Positions 3,437 to 51,649 of a DNA stretch of 53,853 nt are shown in pieces. Every line of letters begins with the position of its first letter. Positions within the stretch are counted from its first letter, which is position 1. A model generated the notes under the pieces. The model had not been told where the DNA came from. It saw nothing but the letters and a program-made list of their open reading frames with translations, and made no database searches. A program made the position numbers and the translations under genes. Location: positions 1 through 53,853 of the forward strand of contig JABANN010000199.1 of NCBI GenBank assembly GCA_013115125.1. Reading direction: 5' to 3'. The DNA comes from Perkinsus olseni. Its lineage: Eukaryota.

Positions 3437-4400
3437 TCATTTGGATGTATTGCTGCTGCTGTGGTCCGCAGTGGTCTGTGACGAATTTCGTGGCGCGCGG
3501 TCATCTTGGCGATGCCCTGGTGTAGTTTCCGTTGCGAAGAGCGCCCGCTGAACCACTGCGTGGTTGTAAGAGATGTGTTTCCGGTAGTCTTGAAGAATGT
3601 AAGATTTAAGATTTGTGGTTGTATGGGCGTTGAGGAAATGCAAGATCTGACGATATTGCAAGTGGAAGGAGCTGCTGCTGCAGTCACTGCGTTATCTCCT
3701 GTGAGGGCACCCCTCCTGGTTCTGTGACGAAGTGCCTCGGTATTTCGGGAATTTTGTGCCTGCCGACAATACTAGAATGATGATGACCGTTGAGGAACTT
3801 CAAGTTTCCCAAGATTTCGTAAGTAAGCTGTTTATTACTCCTCCCGCTCGCTTGTTGCCCGTAAGTCACTAATACCATTATTCGGCTTGTTTTCCTTTTC
3901 CCTATCACGATTGCTACAACATACGAAGGGAACTCTGTCATCGTCGTCGTAATCGTCTGCTCTGTTGTAATCTGTTGCCCCTCGCTGATGCCGATCATCA
4001 TCATTACCATAGTCTACCGTAATAGCGAGGACCCCTGAGACAATTGCCTTGAGTTGTGATCAGGGAGGGCCACGGTCGGCGGGGGAGGGTCAGTTCAGCT
4101 GTCTTCTGCGTAAAGTGTCTCGTTGTGACCAGGAGAACTGTCCTGGTATCACGGGCGATGAGACACTTACCACAGGGTGAGGGGATCTAGGGACGCATAT
4201 CCCTAGATCGAGTGTTCTTCGGAGACTTCTGCGAGGACGACAGTCCTGCACATCTTGATATGTACCGTCGGAGGCACTTTCCTGTCCTCGAGAATAGCAC
4301 GAAACTCGTATGGGGAGAAGATTAAGGGCTTCGCTGACTCTGAAACGTCAGGGCGGTGGGTACAGGAATGCCCGGAGTGTAGCGCCGTGAGGCTCTCGGA
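3437..4400 (-). other. Possible fragmented or spliced hypothetical gene
   Basis: Protein-like segments on the minus strand (DYGNDDDRHQRGATDYNRADDYDDDD; HLQYRQILHFLNAH...VVQRALFATE) with candidate GT-AG sites. No recognisable domain and no consistent model. Confidence 0.25.
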
Positions 4401-4494
4401 AGACAGATTGCTCTTGTTATGTCGGCTGTGTGTAGGACTGAAGATAGTGGAAGGCAGGAGGAATTTTGTTGAGTCGGAGCAGTCTTTTTTCAAT

Positions 4495-7058
4495 ATGATA
4501 GATTCTCTCCGGCGGGCTTTTGTGGAGTTCTTGTTGGTCACCAGACGAGCCTTCAGCTTGCTCAGAGTAAGCCAGTTATTGAGAATCTTTTCTTAGTGTC
4601 AAACTCATGTTCAACCTCAAGATACGCTGTCATGTGATCATCCGCATTCCGCTCAGGTGGCCTCGTTGTCCGTCTCCCTTCTAGCCTGTGGAGCGCTGCA
4701 GCGGATTGCGTTCAAGCGAATAGCTTATCCCCTAGGAGAGTAAGTCATGGCAAGTTGCCATTGCCAACCGGCCCACCGCGGCACGCATGCTCCTTCTTAC
4801 GTACTCGCCGCTGTGGAGCTAAATCGCGGGCGCCTGTGAAGTCCATCCTCTTTAAACGGGTCCCATTCTCTCACTTGCGATCGTTACAGACTCCGGAAGT
4901 TTAGATACCCAATTCTGTTGCTCTGTGTAATATCGGCTGCCTTCATCCCCCTTTTCGGCTTCCCCTACCTCTACGTTAAGTGTGCTGCTGGCGGCACTGA
5001 CGACCATCGTATTCTACCCTACGCCATTATAGGTAGGGGTATAATCTCCAACGACGCCTCCCGTCGCCATGAGCTGAATAGCTCAACCGCTACATTCTGT
5101 GCCTGTTAATCGTTTTCGAGAGCCTTGTCGAGGCTAAGTGTACATTACTTGTAAGTTACACAGTAAGCCTTAGGTGCTCTCAATGCTGTTAATGGTGGTC
5201 TTACTATATTCGGCAACGCCTACGTCCCTGGCTACCTGCAGACCATCCTACAGCAGACCATTATCCCCTTCACGATGATCTTATCCGTGGTAGTATCCCT
5301 TCGATCGCTCCAGGTCTCTTACTACACCCGTTGGTCTCAGCTCCTATGCGGTACGCGGTACACTCTGCAGCATCTCCTCGGTGTTGTCATCATTATCGTC
5401 GGTGTCGCTGTGCAGCTAGGGCCGCTAATGGTAAGTGACGGTAAGTGGGGATCTTCCCTTGCGAGTTCCGTGTTCACCTCAGTCGTCGGACGGTGACACT
5501 GGATCTTCCGCGACCACCACAAGCCTTGTCTGGTCCCTGGTGTACCTCGTGGCCCCTCTACCAGTGGCTCTGGCAGCAGTGTAGGCTATGCATTGTGACA
5601 ATTTCGTGGCGCAGTGACGGAACTCTCATCAGTTACCAGGAACTGGAGTTCTCTAAACGCAAGGTTAACTTGATATCCTTGATGTACTGGAGTAACCTCA
5701 TCCAAGCGATGATACTCTTTTTGCTGGTAAGTGGCTCGCCTCCCTGCTGCTAACCTCACAGTCCCCCTTAGGTGCCATACGACCTCGCCACCACCGCGAA
5801 CTCCGAGGTCTCGCACTGGCCGGCAGCATTCCGGTGTATTGCGTACTCGGATAAGACTGTCAACCCGGAGTGTGCGGGAGGGCAGGCCGGCATGTAAGTC
5901 CTGCTCCTCCTGCTGCTCGCCGGACTTCTCGTAACAGCGGCTTAGTTCGTCGCGTCGTTGAACCCTAAAAAGTGTCGAAATTGATTGCTTCCCAGATACC
6001 TAGGGTCCTGCATCCTGTGGATGCTGGTGTCACAGTTGCTTCAGGCTGAGCTTGTGAGGCACGCTGGCGCGAGCCTTTGTGCTGTGGTTATGACGTTGGG
6101 TTTACCAACCACCGCCCTGGCCTTCTCGGTAGGCCCCTCGGTTGGGACCGCCTTAGTTGAATACGCCTTCCTAGCCATTAAGCACATCAATTATACTATA
6201 TAATAAATAACATGATTTATCGAATGGCACGTTACATATTCATACGCGCATCAGGGGCCCTCTGTCGTTCGTCTTCACCGCGATTACCAGTCGGAGTCGC
6301 CGGTTGCTACTTCCTTCATGCCCCTCTGTCCCAGATACCCCAATTGATGGGCGACCACATCGAGCCGATAGATGGATCCACCGTCTTGGCCCTCTCGGTG
6401 GTACGTGCCACCACTCGTAGCGTATCGCGCTTATTCTTCACTGACAGATCCTGCTTGGTGTGAGCTTGTATCGATCCGCGAAGATTCAAGGTGATTCTGT
6501 GGTGCCGAAGGAAGCTGAGGGGTTGATGGCATCCACGGATTCAACCAGTAGGAACCCTATGTCTGGCATTACTACAACACGGTAGTGGTGATTTTGATAT
6601 GGACCATAACTCCAATCGTATTATAGAACAGTCTCTAATAGAGTACCGTACTAGTACGCCGTACTCGAAGTACGGCGTACTTCAATACACGTAGGCGTTA
6701 TTTAATATATTTAATACGTACTAGTTCTCCGTACCCGCACTAGGTTGACAGTTTGAAACGTACTCCGTACCGTACTTTCCTCGACCCCAGTGCGCTTGCC
6801 CAGCTCTAGCGCACATAATCACACTGGCCTACTACCGTCGCCCTACTGCGACGTAGAACCTCTGTCATGGAAGATGGTGTTGCTTTCAGTTTTCACTGCA
6901 TCAGTTGTGTATCAGGTGGGAGCGGAAGCCGCACACCCCTGCAGAGAAGGGGCAGTGTCCAGCCTCGACTCTACAGCTCTGGCATCGGCATCATTCAGAG
7001 TGAATACACCCATGACGAGGGTCTACAGTACGCTGACCTGGCTTCGCTGAGTTCATGA
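4495..7058 (+). CDS. Chloroquine resistance transporter-like (CRT/CLT, drug-metabolite transporter superfamily) protein; about 11-12 exons, 3' end uncertain
   Basis: Spliced product: ...LLACGALQRIAFKRIAYPLGEYPILLL...GALNAVNGGLTIFGNAYVPGYLQTILQQTIIPFTMILSVLLCGTRYTLQHLLGVVIIIVGV...VWSLVYLVAPLPVALAAVYQE...AFRC...PECAG.... About 10 hydrophobic segments and a two-Cys loop, matching the CRT-like pattern. Confidence 0.85.
6641..6776. repeat. GTAC-rich low-complexity patch with a perfect 13-bp inverted repeat
   Basis: AGTACGCCGTACT (6653-6665), CGA loop, AGTACGGCGTACT (6669-6681); many further GTAC words and an AT-rich centre. Confidence 0.7.
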
Positions 7059-8361
7059 TTTATCAACTTTCAGGTGCCCACTTTTACTAGAGCACACTCG
7101 CTCAGCGGCATCTTCTCCTCGCCGTAGATGACAAGGGCGATCAGGTCGCAGCGCATGTCCAATATCATCACTCAAAATGATATTTTCACGTTCAAGGATC
7201 GGCCGTTTTGCCTTTCGCCGATTCGCCTGACTTTTATTAAGGATATTCTATTGCGTTAGGATCGTGTTGTGTTTCGGTACTCCGCGATCTTGCCTGTTGT
7301 GTCAACTCATCGTCCGTAAGCTAATGAGGCATTCACGGGCATCAGCTATAGATAAGAGGCGGAATCAGCCTATGGTGAAGTTACTTCGCCAAGTAGGTGC
7401 AGTGATGCAGTGTAGCACAACAGAACAACTTGCAGGTTAAGTTTATATACTTAACATAGCGCAGCCTAGCCTTGCACTGCCATTGTGGTAACCGTACCGT
7501 GGTTGCTCGGCGTCCTTCTTAACTACCGATGACTCCTCAATCCTCGTCAACATACGATGGCTACCAGAGACACATCTCTCGTGTAACTCCGTGACCTCCG
7601 AGGAGGTTTCCGACGTAACCAGATCAGTATCACCTTCCTGCATGATCTTCTGAATTCTCCATGCCAATAATATTGCCATATACTAATAGCATTCTGAATG
7701 AGAGAACTATGAGGCGTCGGAACCTCATCCAGTTTAGCCTCGTCCGCAAGTACAAGTTAGAATGCCTCATGGCAGTAGATCTCTAGAGCAGAAGCCTCAT
7801 CAACACACTCGGACAAGGCCAATCCCAAACGCTAGTCATGAACATCATGTTTCAACTTCAACCGTGGATAATGCTTTGGCCCGCGCGATCTGGGTTCGCT
7901 GAAAGATGAGACTACGTCGTAGTCCCTACTGACAAAAAGTAGTACAGCAGTAGTCACTACGAAGAAGAGTACGGCAGATTACCGCTTGCGCTAATGAAGA
8001 CAACACAGATATCACTAAGGTATGCCAAGTGGCAGTGGCAGGCTGATTGCCCTTCTTTGCACGGATGTGTACCCACTCCGAGGAGTGCTGGCCGCTCGCC
8101 ACGCCCAGAGCCCCCCGGGCGTGCGCAGCTTCTCGGAGACTTGAGAGGCCAACCCCTATCTTCGGGCGCTTCACTTTCCCGTGGAGCTAGGGCCTCGTCA
8201 CTTGTAGCAATGCAATGCTGTATCTGTGGTAGCGAGCTTATGGCAAATCGACAAGCCAACTTGAAAAAGTCCCCGGTGCTGTCGTGTTGCAGCCGAGAGC
8301 GATCGTTCATTAGTGACCAGGCTGAAGATTAGGAGTCCATTTCAGGTTTAGATCTCCCCAG

Positions 8362-14650: not shown

Positions 14651-14668
14651 CTGAGGCGAGGTAGCAAA

Positions 14669-14741
14669 TACCAGGAGCGAGGGTCGAACTCGCGACCTTC
14701 TGCGTGTAAGGCAGACGTCATAACCACTAGACTATCCCGGC
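14669..14741 (-). tRNA. trnV-TAC: tRNA-Val (anticodon TAC)
   Basis: GCCGGGATAGTCTAGTGGTTATGACGTCTGCCTTACACGCAGAAGGTCGCGAGTTCGACCCTCGCTCCTGGTA. 7-bp acceptor stem, TCTGC/GCAGA anticodon stem with CT-TAC-AC loop, GTTCGA T-loop; 73 nt, no intron. Confidence 0.96.
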
Positions 14742-15600
14742 ATTACGATCAGCATGATCGCCCCGGTGTTACGATGATCCAGTATGCGCTCTTTGACTGC
14801 TGATTTGCGATAGTCCACGTGGATTCCAAAAAATACGCCCGCAATCATGGAATCAGGGCATTGTGACTCCTATTATAGCTCGATAACCCTGTCAATGACG
14901 GGCACCGTCGGAGGAATTCTGAAGGGGAATACGTTTTACATCGCAAGCCCAGCTTGTCGTCGCGATGAAGAAGTGTTTGCTTCAACTTGAAACAACGAAA
15001 CATGTCATGGGGTGGTAAGAAACCCTCCAATCGTCGCGCTCGGGAGGAACATCATCATCAGAGTCAAAAACGGCCCTCTCGCCGACCGCTTGGTTAGTTA
15101 ATAGTTCATAATACAGTGAGGAATGGAGCGATAAGAATGTGACATTACAGGAACCCGAATCAACGCCTCGTTTCGACGTTGGAATGACAGTTCGCACACG
15201 AGAAGTATTACAGAGCTTGGTGATCGGGGAATTCACAGCAAGAGCATAGGATAAGGACGGTATCATACGGCAGGGGTCAGGCAACCGTCTCCGACGTCGG
15301 CGGACTACACTGATCACGTAGCGTTCGCGGAGGAGACAGTAGAAGCTGAAAAGGGCAATGACGAAATCATGTGGAGTCGAATGAATGCTAGTCATATGAG
15401 GTATTCCGCGTAACGGACTCTATCAAGTGGACTATCGGTTGCACAACTAGGAGAGAACATCACTACGAAACAACTGCCCGGCTGGCTCATTCTCAAATGC
15501 TAGCCCCCATTACTGTCTTGGCATCACCAATGGCAGCTCACCCGACGTACACAGTGCGAGAGCAGAATGCTGCTTAATCGTAAGGGTGGCTTCACCTCAA

Positions 15601-47698: not shown

Positions 47699-48186
47699 GA
47701 GTCACGACGAAAACACAGCTCAACCCCGAGATATGGCGCTGCTTGTCCGTTCAGCTGCACGGAAAGTCGACCAAATCTCCGACCCCGGTGCTCGGCAGTA
47801 GAGCAAGCTCACTGTATCTCTATCGTGTATGTTCGAACGGGCTCCGTAGGCGCCGTTCTGGCCACCGGTCGGCGGCGCCATACTGCGGTCTGTTAGCGAT
47901 GCTGGGCGAGTCTGCCTCCCACAGTGACCATCTCAGAAAGAGCGACGCCCTACACTTAGGCTGCTTGACCAGCCTCGTTGCGGCGTCCGGTTTGAACACA
48001 CTCGACTCCAACCAGTACTCACGAATTGAATACCTTTTACCATCATCATCTCTTCATAACAGCCACACGTACGCATGCACAAGGCATTCGATCGCTGAGG
48101 AATATCAAGTAGCCACAAGAATCCAAGATGAAGGTTTGGCGTGCTGTCGTCGGCTGCAGGTCCTACGTGGCTTCGAACTCTCCGGC

Positions 48187-49551
48187 ATGACGCCTCCGAC
48201 GACTGCTAGTCACCGTAATGGCTACTGGATGGCTCACAACTCTACCGCTGTACAGGGTCACCCTAGAGGTGGCACCCGTATGAATGGCGTGCCAGTATGT
48301 GTTGTTCTTCGAGCATGGTTCTTCGACCTTATCGGTCTGCGACAGCACCCCGTCCGGTCTTCTCTGAGACAAGTTTCCAAGTTCGACGTCTTCATCAGTC
48401 ACCCGTGGTGCATCAGTCGCATGAACACTTTCCTCAGCCTGGCCTTCGTCTACGGCACGGGTTTCCCTTTTTTCCTCTCTTTTTCATTGTGTGCCGTTCT
48501 ACGGTACGCCGGCTGTAGAGTATCCGTATGTTTAGTGGCAGGCTGGTTCTCCTGGCTCGGTGGATTTATCTGTGACGGAGTTTTTTCTAGAAATAATACT
48601 ACTGTCTTCCTTGACAAGTACAGTATCGACCAGCTTGACAATAGTGAAAAGCAAGAGAGCATCCGTAGCATGCGGGAGTTTCTCGAGAAATCCGACGAGA
48701 TCCTCATACTCTGGAGCTCTGTGTACAATACTCGTCTCTGGTGCGTCTACGAGATGGCCTGCTTCTTGAAAGATCACCACATTGACAAAGTTGACATGAT
48801 GCCTGTGACCCTGTTCGCATCCAAAGTCATCACTGCGGCGATTGAAGTGGTTTATTGGAGCGCCAGAACTGCCCTCGGCGGAGAGTATGGCCTCGCTATC
48901 GATCTGACTTATGCCGCCCTCTACGGCGTCCAGGTATGCGAGGACCTCATGCCCTCAGTTATCTGTTTAAGGTCAGACATCAGTGAAGTTGATGTAGATC
49001 GCCTCCAGTGCACGGTCTCACAAGACCGGGACACGCTGGTTGGTGACATTAAGCGCATCTACGGCTCCTTCGCCTCCTTCAAAGAACATGTCCGCACATC
49101 GTTTAAAACTCTTTTGGCGACGTGGTCGACCCGAAGACACATGATACGATGTGGTCTTGTTTTCGGCTATACTTCGGCGTTGGTGACGTTTGTCACAGGT
49201 CGCTTCTCACAAACCTTACTAATCTTCCTCACGCGAGCCTCATACATGTCCTGTGTTACGCAAGGCTGTGTGGGTCTATTAAGGCTCGGTTTGAGACCGA
49301 CAAAAACCCTTGCTAGGGTGTCGGCGCTTTTCTTTGTGCCGCTGCACGCCTGGGCGGTTCATTACATGTGGGAGGTCTATGGCCCGTACGTAGATGGCTC
49401 AGACTCTGGCATTACCTTCAGCACTTTCCCCTACCGAGCAGTCATTGCTGTCGGGCAGCTGCTGATTCTCGGGTCCTGGCTGTGCTATATGGTGAGGCTC
49501 GGTATTTCCCAGAAAGGGAACGGTCTGCCTATGAAAAAGTTGGTCGAGTGA
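48187..49551 (+). CDS. Intronless multi-pass membrane protein with TIR-like domain
   Basis: FDVFISHPW, a hydrophobic insert, VFLDKYSIDQ, SDEILILWSSVYNTRLWCVYEM, then several more hydrophobic helices. The frame is open from 47743 but the start is more likely ATG 48187 or 48280. Confidence 0.8.
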   Translation: MTPPTTASHRNGYWMAHNSTAVQGHPRGGTRMNGVPVCVVLRAWFFDLIGLRQHPVRSSLRQVSKFDVFISHPWCISRMNTFLSLAFVYGTGFPFFLSFSLCAVLRYAGCRVSVCLVAGWFSWLGGFICDGVFSRNNTTVFLDKYSIDQLDNSEKQESIRSMREFLEKSDEILILWSSVYNTRLWCVYEMACFLKDHHIDKVDMMPVTLFASKVITAAIEVVYWSARTALGGEYGLAIDLTYAALYGVQVCEDLMPSVICLRSDISEVDVDRLQCTVSQDRDTLVGDIKRIYGSFASFKEHVRTSFKTLLATWSTRRHMIRCGLVFGYTSALVTFVTGRFSQTLLIFLTRASYMSCVTQGCVGLLRLGLRPTKTLARVSALFFVPLHAWAVHYMWEVYGPYVDGSDSGITFSTFPYRAVIAVGQLLILGSWLCYMVRLGISQKGNGLPMKKLVE

Positions 49552-49797
49552 AGTCGATCCGTCTGCCTCGTTATATGTTCAGTTTTTTGTCGTGTCGGTG
49601 ATTTTATAAGTCATCCAAATACAACGGTCTTACGCATTTCCACTGTACCAAACTCTTTCCGAGTTTGTCATGGGAGGGCGGACTTTATATGTGAAATTAA
49701 CCAGCGCTTCCCTGGCCTACTGCAACATTAGCGTTCGACTGGAATGCGGTAGCGCTCGGGTGGCAAGCAGTGGCTTATAAGGAGTAGACCGTCTTTC

Positions 49798-51446
49798 ATG
49801 GCTCAGTCCACTTCTAAGCACACTTGTAGCGAACCATTTCTACAGAAGGCGGGTGATCTATCAGATGGCAAAGTGAGACCATTAGAGGCCGCGCCATACG
49901 GCACCAGGTAACTCTTAATCGCACGTCCTCAGGATGCGCTAGTGGAAGCCCTCTCGAGACAGCCCAGGCGAAACCTCATTCCCTCCGAGTCTCTTCCTGT
50001 GAGAAAACTCTCAGTCCATTAATGGAGTCTGATGAGCTCATTATTCACGCAGGACCTTCCCAAGATAGAGAGGCCCGAGTGCTGCCGACTGATTCATGAG
50101 TTCAAGGAGCGCCAGTGGCTGGCCTCCCGAGGTGGTTTATGCTGCTCCTCGCTAGCGTAGCTACTAGGACCCATGCTCGTCGTTCTCTGGCTCATGACTT
50201 TATTGCCTTCTTCACTGGAGTTCAGAACCAGTAGATCTGGACCAGTTCATGCCCCGCTAGAGAGAGGTTCTCGAAAGCTTTCGAATAGCACCCGTTTGAC
50301 CTCGATATCCTAAAGCATCAGGAAGTTAGCGGGACTAGGGAGCCTTCTTTTGCAGCGCCCTGTGTCCTCGACGGTATTGAACTGCTCAGCGACGGCTAGT
50401 CGGCATTACTGCCGTTGGGCAGACCCTTTCGCCTCTCACAACCACCTCACCTACGGATTTCGTGCTTACCAGGCCGCTCATGCATGATCGATTTTGACGA
50501 TCAAGAAAGGGGGATGCTTCGAACCTATTTTGACGCTCTGGATCGAGACAGCTCTGGCTCAATAGACGTCAGCGAGCTCGAGGAGGTGAGTGCGACACTC
50601 TCCACTCGACGTTTTGTCCGGCACTTGCGGCACTTACTCCTGTGAAGTGGCACTTGGTCCCGTCAACGAGCAGCCACTAGCCTTCACGATACGGAGTCAT
50701 TTGACTTACTTGATCGTGAAGACTACGTGAGTTACCTTAGGTGATGGTTGCTCTAGGACTCGCAGAGAAGCACTCAGATGTAGAGAAAATGCTCTCCGGA
50801 GTGGACGAAGATGACTCTGGCGAGATCGAATTCCACGAGTTTCTCAGCATAGTAATTACCAGCTCATTACTCGCTGGAAGTACTCGCCCGTCTGTAGTTG
50901 CGAAGAGGCCACAGCTCGAATGACCCGAGCTCGTCAGCGATGTTCAAGGTGACGCCCAATCACATCAGCATGAGCTTTGATCACCTTCCGACCTGTAGGT
51001 TTTCAAGTCTTTGATCCGAGGGAATCTCGGAGACACGGAAAACCTCGGCTTCAAGCTCCTCACTTCCGTGTATCGACGTAAAAGGATAATGGATGCAATG
51101 ATGGCGAAGAGAAAGTCAGTTTACCAGGTGAGAAAATTATCAGCCTCGCGACACCCGCCTTTGAAGGAGGTTTCGTTAGGTCGAAGGAATGCGCATATTG
51201 AAGGCTTTCGAGAGGCAACTCAACGAGTCCAGGTTCTCACGAAAGATGGGGGCTTCGCAAGAAGTAAGTTCCCCCTCGTCTCTGATACCAACTTTTTGCT
51301 CTGCGCAGGCCGAACAAGGGAAAGCCAAGAACAGCACTTCCCGACAACAGGTGGCACTCATCGTGGCCGCGCGTCTCTGGCAGGATTCATTTCTGTTAGC
51401 GGCTCTACGTCGCCCCCTTGAGATTGGCCGGTTCGAGACGTCCTAA
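49798..51446 (+). CDS. EF-hand calcium-binding protein (centrin/calmodulin-like pair), multi-exon
   Basis: FDALDRDSSGSIDVSELEE|VMVALG and VDEDDSGEIEFHEFLSI joined by GT-AG introns; C-terminal YRRKRIMDAMM...GRFETS*. Confidence 0.8.
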
Positions 51447-51649
51447 CCAGATGGAACTCAAGCGTCTCCTAAGAAGCGGAGATGTGAGGCTCTCCAGATA
51501 GCGAGCATCGCAGTTGGTGTCGTTCTGGCACATTGAGTACGTCTTCTGTGTATGCAAACATTCATGATCGACTACCCCACTTTTACTATCTCTACAGTCT
51601 CGTGTAACGAATAGTCAATAATAGTTCATAAGAAGGTCCACGACACAAT

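Follow-up and report, generated by a model that had tools for sequence, protein, structure and literature searches.

A TIR-domain protein family of perkinsids and dinoflagellates with two predicted membrane hairpins inserted into the TIR fold

TIR domains play a central part in the immunity of bacteria, plants and animals, and to our knowledge the membrane helix of every described membrane-linked TIR protein lies outside an intact TIR domain. A gene in contig JABANN010000199.1 of the alveolate Perkinsus olseni (assembly GCA_013115125.1) raises the question of whether the chain of a TIR domain can itself leave the soluble fold, enter the membrane and return. We analysed positions 1–53,853 of the forward strand of this contig; this whole stretch of 53,853 nucleotides is referred to as the window. 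An earlier inspection of the letters alone (hereafter the sequence-only reading) had proposed that the gene at 48187–49551 encodes a TIR-like domain that is split by a transmembrane hairpin and retains the catalytic glutamate.

Our analysis revealed that the gene is real, transcribed and composed of a single exon, and that the family of its 454-amino acid (aa) product (P0001) is related to TIR domains by both sequence and fold. The TIR domain is very likely interrupted by two inserted hairpins. The proposed interruption by a hairpin after betaA therefore stood, whereas its restriction to a single hairpin did not, because a second one follows betaD. The TIR label itself is not new, as it is already found in UniProt names and Pfam matches; the architecture is new. 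The features of the gene are as follows, in window coordinates.

48156..49643 (+): unspliced transcript span, from contigs of sequencing runs X16, X3 and X2
48187..49551 (+): coding sequence, 454 aa plus stop, from the ATG at 48187; single exon
48283..48330 (+): N-terminal strand (aa 33–36) and helix (aa 37–48) before the TIR core; predicted local distance difference test score (pLDDT) of the model ~94–96, family consensus LLRG..L...L
48382..48408 (+): betaA motif FDVFISHPW (aa 66–74); model strand 66–71
48418..48585 (+): insert 1, helix 78–89 and putative membrane hairpin 92–107 / 112–133 (hydrophobic), at the alphaA position; from the model, segment counts and charge bias
48601..48774 (+): TIR core with betaB, BB-loop region, alphaB, betaC and alphaC (aa 139–196); from the fixed 51-aa spacing, the core profile and Pfam
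48751..48753 (+): Glu189, equivalent of the TIR catalytic Glu; invariant in 150/150 members, aligned to the E of WCLDELA in chain 7xoz
48790..48804 (+): betaD (aa 202–206); from the model
48805..48984 (+): insert 2, helical hairpin 207–230 / 232–266, at the alphaD position; from the model, segment counts and charge bias
49003..49125 (+): betaE, alphaE (278–292) and an extra helix (295–313) with the C275 / D280-R281 / F298 / V302-R303 motif; from the model and conservation
49132..49506 (+): four C-terminal helices (316–337, 340–366, 373–403, 411–440), a putative membrane bundle; from the model and segment counts

Relationship to TIR domains in sequence and predicted fold

A phmmer search with the protein against 1.84 billion representative proteins retrieved 1,642 relatives at E ≤ 1e-3, 232 at E ≤ 1e-10 and 3 at E ≤ 1e-30, the closest being FOL47_002248 of Perkinsus chesapeaki (48% identity). 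We also built a profile of the TIR core (58 columns, aa 139–196) from 24 members. This core has a fixed length, as F141 and A191 are exactly 51 aa apart in all 128 complete members of the 150 that were aligned. Among the 120 relatives listed in a search with this profile, 40 carried an organism name, namely 29 of Perkinsus olseni, 5 of P. chesapeaki, 3 of Polarella glacialis, 2 of Symbiodinium and 1 of Prorocentrum cordatum. Cluster look-ups added Symbiodinium microadriaticum, S. necroappetens, S. natans, Effrenium voratum and Cladocopium, so the mention of similar dinoflagellate proteins in the sequence-only reading proved correct. Haptophyte-labelled clusters, which were indicated by a language-model atlas, are taken as a lead only. 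Nineteen of the 40 named relatives bear the UniProt name 'TIR domain-containing protein', and a precomputed Pfam TIR match is present on 5 of the 120.

When the core profile was compared with PDB sequences, 23 of the 24 matches at E ≤ 10 were TIR proteins, the exception being TGA7 (E 2.1). The best matches were IL1RAPL2 (3.8e-4), IL1RAPL1 (4.7e-3), TLR2 (0.019) and RPPT-TIR (0.034), with three TIR proteins counted at E ≤ 0.005; SNC1, RPP1, RUN1, RPS4, RPV1, Roq1, SIGIRR, TLR6, TLR10 and TLR15 were also matched. A full-length profile of 40 members yielded the TIR domain of IL1RAPL2 as its best PDB match at E 0.28 only, because the membrane parts dilute it. Pfam models gave a consistent picture: at E ≤ 1, TIR_2 (PF13676) matched 32 of the 40 full-length members (best 2.9e-5), TIR (PF01582) 19 (best 1e-6), HET 5 and ThsB_TIR 4, and on the 24 core segments TIR_2 matched 20, TIR 16 and HET 13. 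Similarity to proteins with solved TIR structures is thus found at the family level, both with the core profile and with Pfam on individual members.

The predicted structure points in the same direction. AlphaFold2 modelled the full-length protein with 150 aligned relatives (mean pLDDT 84.8, predicted template modelling score (pTM) 0.83) and residues 60–330 with 127 relatives (pLDDT 92.7, pTM 0.87). In order, the model consists of betaA (66–71), helices 78–89, 92–107 and 112–133, betaB (139–141), alphaB (152–167), betaC (169–176), alphaC (184–196), betaD (202–206), helices 207–230 and 232–266, a short strand at ~273, alphaE (278–292), an extra helix (295–313), and the tail helices 316–337, 340–366, 373–403 and 411–440. 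The flavodoxin-like TIR fold that the sequence-only reading implied is present in this predicted model, with betaA to betaE in order and flanked by helices. Ranks 1–14 of the fold search are TIR domains covering most of each target, and plant TIRs fill the top rows of the Foldseek search against the PDB. The alignments obtained with the model of residues 60–330 span model residues 4–271 and bridge both inserts; on the full-length numbering, TIR structural alignments begin at aa 63–65 and reach aa 319–329. In the search with the full-length model, 12 of 50 rows are TIR domains, interspersed with TetR-type helical bundles aligned to the helical part. Among the viral structures of BFVD, no match was obtained at E ≤ 1e-3 (best, a TIR/WD40 protein of Tetraselmis virus 1, E 0.15), and no counterpart of the architecture was found there.

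Catalytic-site residues and membrane hairpins

All of the motifs listed in the sequence-only reading were located in the protein. FDVFISHPW occupies aa 66–74 (48382–48408), VFLDK aa 140–144, SDEILILWS aa 169–177 and RLWCVYE aa 183–189, the last residue of which is E189 (48751–48753); further downstream, C275-x4-D280-R281-x6-I288-x3-Y292-G293-x4-F298-x3-V302-R303 reads exactly as noted. The hydrophobic stretch reported after FDVFISHPW is likewise present, with 66 residues between W74 and F141 and two hydrophobic segments peaking at approximately aa 87–105 and 110–128, and the four further C-terminal segments correspond to the four predicted tail helices.

The assignment of the glutamate to the TIR catalytic position was borne out by alignment. 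It lies in alphaC in a W-x-x-x-E context, and its aligned counterpart in plant TIR enzymes that cleave nicotinamide adenine dinucleotide (NAD+) is the Glu of WCLDELA. A comparison of two RUN1 chains locates it precisely. The wild-type chain aligns to core-profile positions 16–53 with 16 bits, and the E100A mutant chain to positions 16–49 with 13.2 bits. The loss of the last four aligned positions in the mutant indicates that E189, at profile position 51, corresponds to the residue that was mutated in the catalytically dead RUN1 structure.

W185 and E189 are invariant in all 150 aligned members. At least 90% conservation was found at each of F69, S71, H72, W74, F141, D143, I147, Q149, D151, Y180, L184, A191, C275, D280 and F298; within betaA, when occupied columns are counted, F69 and W74 reach 100% and S71 and H72 99%. 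These conserved residues lie almost entirely within the TIR part; in the membrane helices, character is preserved whereas sequence is not.

The layout of hydrophobic segments was examined in the 128 complete members by a crude window method rather than a trained topology predictor. Insert 1 (median 85 aa) contains two hydrophobic segments in 111 members, insert 2 (median 91 aa) contains two in 100, although only one passes the threshold in the P. olseni protein itself, and the C-terminal tail contains three or four in 97. The clearly hydrophobic segments of the P. olseni protein are 87–105, 110–128, 319–337 and 418–436. Lysine plus arginine per residue is 0.138 and 0.177 in the flanks of hairpin 1 versus 0.074 in its turn (n = 120), and 0.121 and 0.175 in the flanks of hairpin 2 versus 0.059 in its turn (n = 111); the turns are enriched in acidic residues. 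Hairpin 2 superposes on the transmembrane hairpin of the signal peptidase complex chain 7p2q_C (root mean square deviation 1.8 over 56 residues), and on those of the membrane proteins NarQ, HtrII, YbtPQ and PfNT1; it also superposes on soluble coiled coils.

The two halves of the TIR domain are not predicted to fall on opposite sides of the membrane. The even number of helices (two) in each insert and the roughly twofold higher lysine and arginine content of the TIR-proximal flanks would place all pieces of the domain on one side, the positive-inside side. We consider it likely that the protein is truly inserted in the membrane. The predicted outside loops are only a few residues long in the model, which argues against a ligand-binding ectodomain.

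Transcript, paralogues and neighbouring genes

The coding sequence lies in an open reading frame (47743..49551, +) that is the longest of its region, and an identical 454-aa sequence is present in a public protein collection. Contigs from four runs (X1, X2, X3 and X16, the last recorded as RNA-Seq) were aligned to 47700–51500. One contig per run covers the gene in X16 (48156–49588), X3 (48162–49643) and X2 (48182–49643), and none of these contains a splice joint inside the gene. Run X1 also contains RNA, because its contigs carry nine GT..AG splice joints in the neighbouring gene. The summed contig depth of X1 was 3441–7720 over 48208–49604, 49–57 upstream and 1.65–22.7 downstream; contig depth is a poor measure of expression, and we take these values only as a clear sign of presence. 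In addition, at least 0.38 of the sampled words were found in 24 listed runs of 14 studies, 0.38 being approximately the share of the 1.46-kb transcript in the 3.8-kb query.

The open frame runs on for 148 codons upstream of the ATG (47743–48186, +). The RNA contigs of the gene begin at 48156–48183, and a separate low-depth contig stops at 48062, which leaves the in-frame extension upstream of 48156 outside the contigs of the gene. This upstream stretch probably represents untranslated or intergenic sequence and is open by chance.

No paralogue was found within the 53,853-nucleotide window. Elsewhere, at least 17 distinct FOZ60 locus tags of the family are present in one P. olseni assembly, several of them adjacently numbered: 011302, 011304 and 011317 (on one 209,780-bp contig), 008391 and 008392, 007424 and 007427, and 000177 and 000179. 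These neighbouring paralogues suggest tandem arrays, as in fast-evolving immune gene families.

A separate multi-exon gene encoding an EF-hand (calmodulin-like) protein lies at 49786–51500 (+), approximately 235 nucleotides past the stop codon at 49549–49551. In one X1 contig set its GT..AG joints are 49872/49933, 49998/50053, 50129/50471, 50583/50739, 50851/50898, 50946/50997, 51125/51178, 51263/51309 and 51348/51398. Directly before 49786, the contig of this gene carries a 9-letter loose end, CTTGGCTCA, which presumably corresponds to the 3' end of the perkinsid/dinoflagellate spliced leader; if so, transcripts of the EF-hand gene would be trans-spliced at a 5' end of their own. The same order, the TIR-membrane gene followed by the EF-hand gene, is found in P. 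chesapeaki, where the gene model of FOL47_002248 (P0002, 695 aa) joins the two proteins and lacks the last membrane helix. We considered a fusion of the TIR protein to the EF-hand domain and rejected it. No contig bridges both genes in the four runs; the TIR contigs of three runs stop at 49588–49643, and the spliced EF-hand contig starts at ~49786. The P. chesapeaki model is thus probably a mis-fusion.

Three other long gene models contain a family member: one in P. olseni with an mRNA-capping enzyme beta domain (P0225), one of 1216 aa in P. chesapeaki with sugar-phosphate transporter domains, whose locus tag is numbered next to that of the protein P0003 (P0230), and one of 1910 aa with PF05721 (P0250). 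These are likely merged gene models rather than true fusions. The sole RNA-family match in the window is a tRNA-Val (anticodon TAC) at 14668–14742 (-).

Candidate activity, alternative explanations and significance

The explanation that we favour, and regard as fairly probable, is that a single complete TIR domain forms the centre of a polytopic membrane protein, which acts as a membrane-anchored, E189-dependent NAD(P)+-cleaving enzyme. According to this proposal, the TIR chain would exit the soluble fold twice, through a hydrophobic hairpin after betaA in the place of alphaA and through a second hairpin after betaD in the place of alphaD. The eight helices would form a single membrane bundle whose cytoplasmic (positive-inside) face carries the TIR domain, and the activity would be that of an NAD(P)+ glycohydrolase or ADP-ribosyl cyclase. 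The residues characteristic of NAD+-cleaving TIRs are kept, namely D.F.SH of betaA, F.D of betaB, and W185 and E189 in alphaC. It is the retention of this full set across paralogues that are only ~20% identical that leads us to predict an E189-dependent enzyme, and on these residue patterns we have moderate confidence in Glu-dependent NAD+ cleavage. The active site would most likely be controlled by the state of the bundle or its lateral clustering, in the way that other TIR enzymes are regulated by self-association; this would be the most economical regulatory idea, because two helices that normally support the sheet are predicted to continue into the membrane. Conservation of helix character without sequence argues for an anchor, a scaffold or mechanical coupling over a specific pore.

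Compared with the NAD+-cleaving TIRs of plants (RPP1, RUN1 and RPS4), SARM1 and bacteria (SpbK and ThsB), the protein differs in having hydrophobic hairpins that take the place of alphaA and alphaD or prolong them, and in the four helices that follow the domain. Its BB-loop region, D-K-x-C-I-x-Q-x-D, is HET-like rather than canonical, its activity is predicted only, and it contains no NB-ARC, LRR, ARM, SAM or other sensor domain. It resembles the TLR and IL-1R receptors in the predicted location of the TIR domain at the cytoplasmic face of the membrane, and these families give the best sequence E-values of the core profile (IL1RAPL2, IL1RAPL1 and TLR2). However, the TLR and IL-1R proteins have one membrane helix before an uninterrupted TIR domain and a large ectodomain (PMC7075850), whereas the membrane helices of the present protein are predicted inside and after the TIR domain. 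Among protists, some TIR genes of Gephyrocapsa huxleyi are reported to be responsive to virus infection and to encode several predicted transmembrane helices (PMC12489294). A Chlamydomonas TIR makes 3' cyclic ADP-ribose (3'cADPR) in a Glu-dependent manner and belongs to a clade with dinoflagellate and haptophyte TIRs (bioRxiv 10.64898/2026.04.20.719644). These are, like the present protein, protist TIRs with the conserved catalytic Glu; in the descriptions given by the two papers, however, the membrane helices are N-terminal to the TIR domain rather than internal hairpins. A TIR domain with internal membrane hairpins was not found in the literature on TIR domains in Perkinsus, haptophytes, dinoflagellates and alveolates or on HET, although supplementary tables (S9 of PMC12489294 and S6 of bioRxiv 10.64898/2026.04.20.719644) could list members. 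In the main text of the 2020 TIR survey (PMC7075850), the terms 'alveolat-', 'Perkinsus', 'Symbiodinium', 'Emiliania' and 'insert-' do not occur.

Several observations weigh against the favoured explanation. Taken alone, the P. olseni protein scores under the gathering cut-off of Pfam TIR_2 (18.6 versus 28 bits, E 0.0028), with aa 147–209 aligned onto profile positions 29–91 of 122, because inserts of 66 and 83 aa split the domain so that a linear hidden Markov model sees only its middle piece. A phmmer search with it against PDB sequences found no TIR protein and only a chance match to uridylate kinase (E 2), and Foldseek against the PDB gave no match at E ≤ 1e-3 with either model (best 0.026, to RPP1, and 0.16). 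The protein also deviates at positions conserved in at least 86% of members, having T81 for K (96%), S146 for C (87%) and S158 for G (86%), yet it retains every invariant catalytic-site position. The same conserved Glu is present in aligned animal TIRs such as TLR2 and IL1RAPL, which have long been regarded as scaffolds; the invariance of E189 is therefore no proof of catalysis. Hairpin 2 and helices 340–403 of the protein are marginally hydrophobic and charged, with scale sums of 5.6–9.7 versus 1.3–3.8 for the best segments. Finally, the membrane helices have almost no conserved polar residues, so nothing in them specifically indicates the channel that the sequence-only reading had envisaged.

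Some of these observations lend themselves to other explanations. The sub-threshold Pfam score and the Foldseek E-values above 0.01 would fit a chance resemblance of TIR-like motifs in a lineage-specific membrane protein, but this is effectively refuted by the core profile, whose PDB matches are TIR proteins in 23 of 24 cases, and by the TIR domains at ranks 1–14 of the fold search; it is also at odds with the TIR_2 matches in 32 of 40 members and with the UniProt names of 19 of the 40 named relatives. The marginal hydrophobicity of hairpin 2, which can be superposed on soluble coiled coils as well, could mean that the inserts are soluble helical hairpins or coiled coils and that the protein is a cytosolic or peripheral TIR in which at most the clearly hydrophobic segments are inserted. 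We consider this very improbable, since the helices of hairpin 1 each contain a single charged residue, with Kyte-Doolittle means of 1.4–1.6, two hydrophobic segments per insert are the rule in the family (111/128 and 100/128), both hairpins show the positive-inside bias with acidic turns, and the Symbiodinium members carry the automatic UniProt name 'Transmembrane protein'. The presence of the Glu in scaffold-type animal TIRs would be in line with a non-catalytic membrane scaffold, in which the TIR domain is only a homotypic interaction module that recruits proteins, as classically for TLR, IL-1R and MyD88. Given the full set of catalytic-site residues kept in the family, we regard this as unlikely.

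The affinity to HET raises a further alternative. HET (PF06985) matched 13 of the 24 core segments at E ≤ 1 (best 5.3e-5), including that of the P. olseni protein (E 0.02, core aa 4–37 onto HET positions 52–85 of 146), and within the core the betaB/BB-loop block is HET-like and the alphaB-betaC-alphaC part TIR-like. HET proteins are not known as polytopic membrane proteins. Passages of PMC10197012 likewise give no such description, and they present HET as a remote TIR relative that is able to induce cell death and whose enzymology is unknown. The protein could be a HET-like cell-death executioner, with an eight-helix bundle that damages the membrane when a trigger such as self/non-self contact or infection acts on the TIR/HET part. 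The closer match of the betaB/BB-loop block to HET than to canonical TIR and the size of the family, with its adjacently numbered locus tags in one P. olseni assembly, would fit this, and fungal HET proteins are alike in matching through the betaB/BB-loop/alphaB block and in forming large families. However, the P. olseni core is under the HET gathering cut-off (15.7 versus 22.5 bits), TIR models match more members than HET does (20 and 16 versus 13 of 24 cores, and TIR_2 in 32 versus HET in 5 of 40 full-length members), the family occurs in alveolates and HET in fungi, and the presence of the gene in RNA contigs of all four runs examined is hard to square with an unregulated killer. An executioner of this kind therefore appears quite unlikely, and because the chemistry of HET is unknown, it overlaps the membrane-anchored enzyme that we favour rather than excluding it.

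An immune, cell-death or nucleotide second-messenger role of the enzyme is suggested by the expansion of the family, the adjacent locus tags and the published context; we put forward an immune or cell-death role only tentatively. cADPR-Ca2+ signalling in dinoflagellates has been described pharmacologically (PMC9959387). A bolder and rather unlikely proposal is that the family represents the long-missing membrane-bound ADP-ribosyl cyclase/NADase of myzozoan protists, in which alphaA and alphaD have turned into transmembrane hairpins. Mechanical coupling would then convey the state of the membrane (tension, lipid change, contact with a virus or parasite, or lateral clustering) to the active site, and the cADPR-type messengers thereby released would drive the Ca2+ signalling of dinoflagellates; the family would also link TIR to the fungal HET death domain as a living intermediate form.

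In this study, we describe a large (at least 1,642 sequence clusters) and transcribed family in which two core enzyme helices are predicted to be continuous with membrane helices. Its hosts are ecologically and economically important, comprising perkinsids, coral symbionts, bloom-forming dinoflagellates and probably haptophytes, and the immune and Ca2+-messenger enzymes of these protists are largely unknown. If active, these proteins would allow NAD+-derived signalling to be regulated in a new manner, directly at the membrane, and their mixed TIR/HET signature may help to settle what fungal HET domains do.

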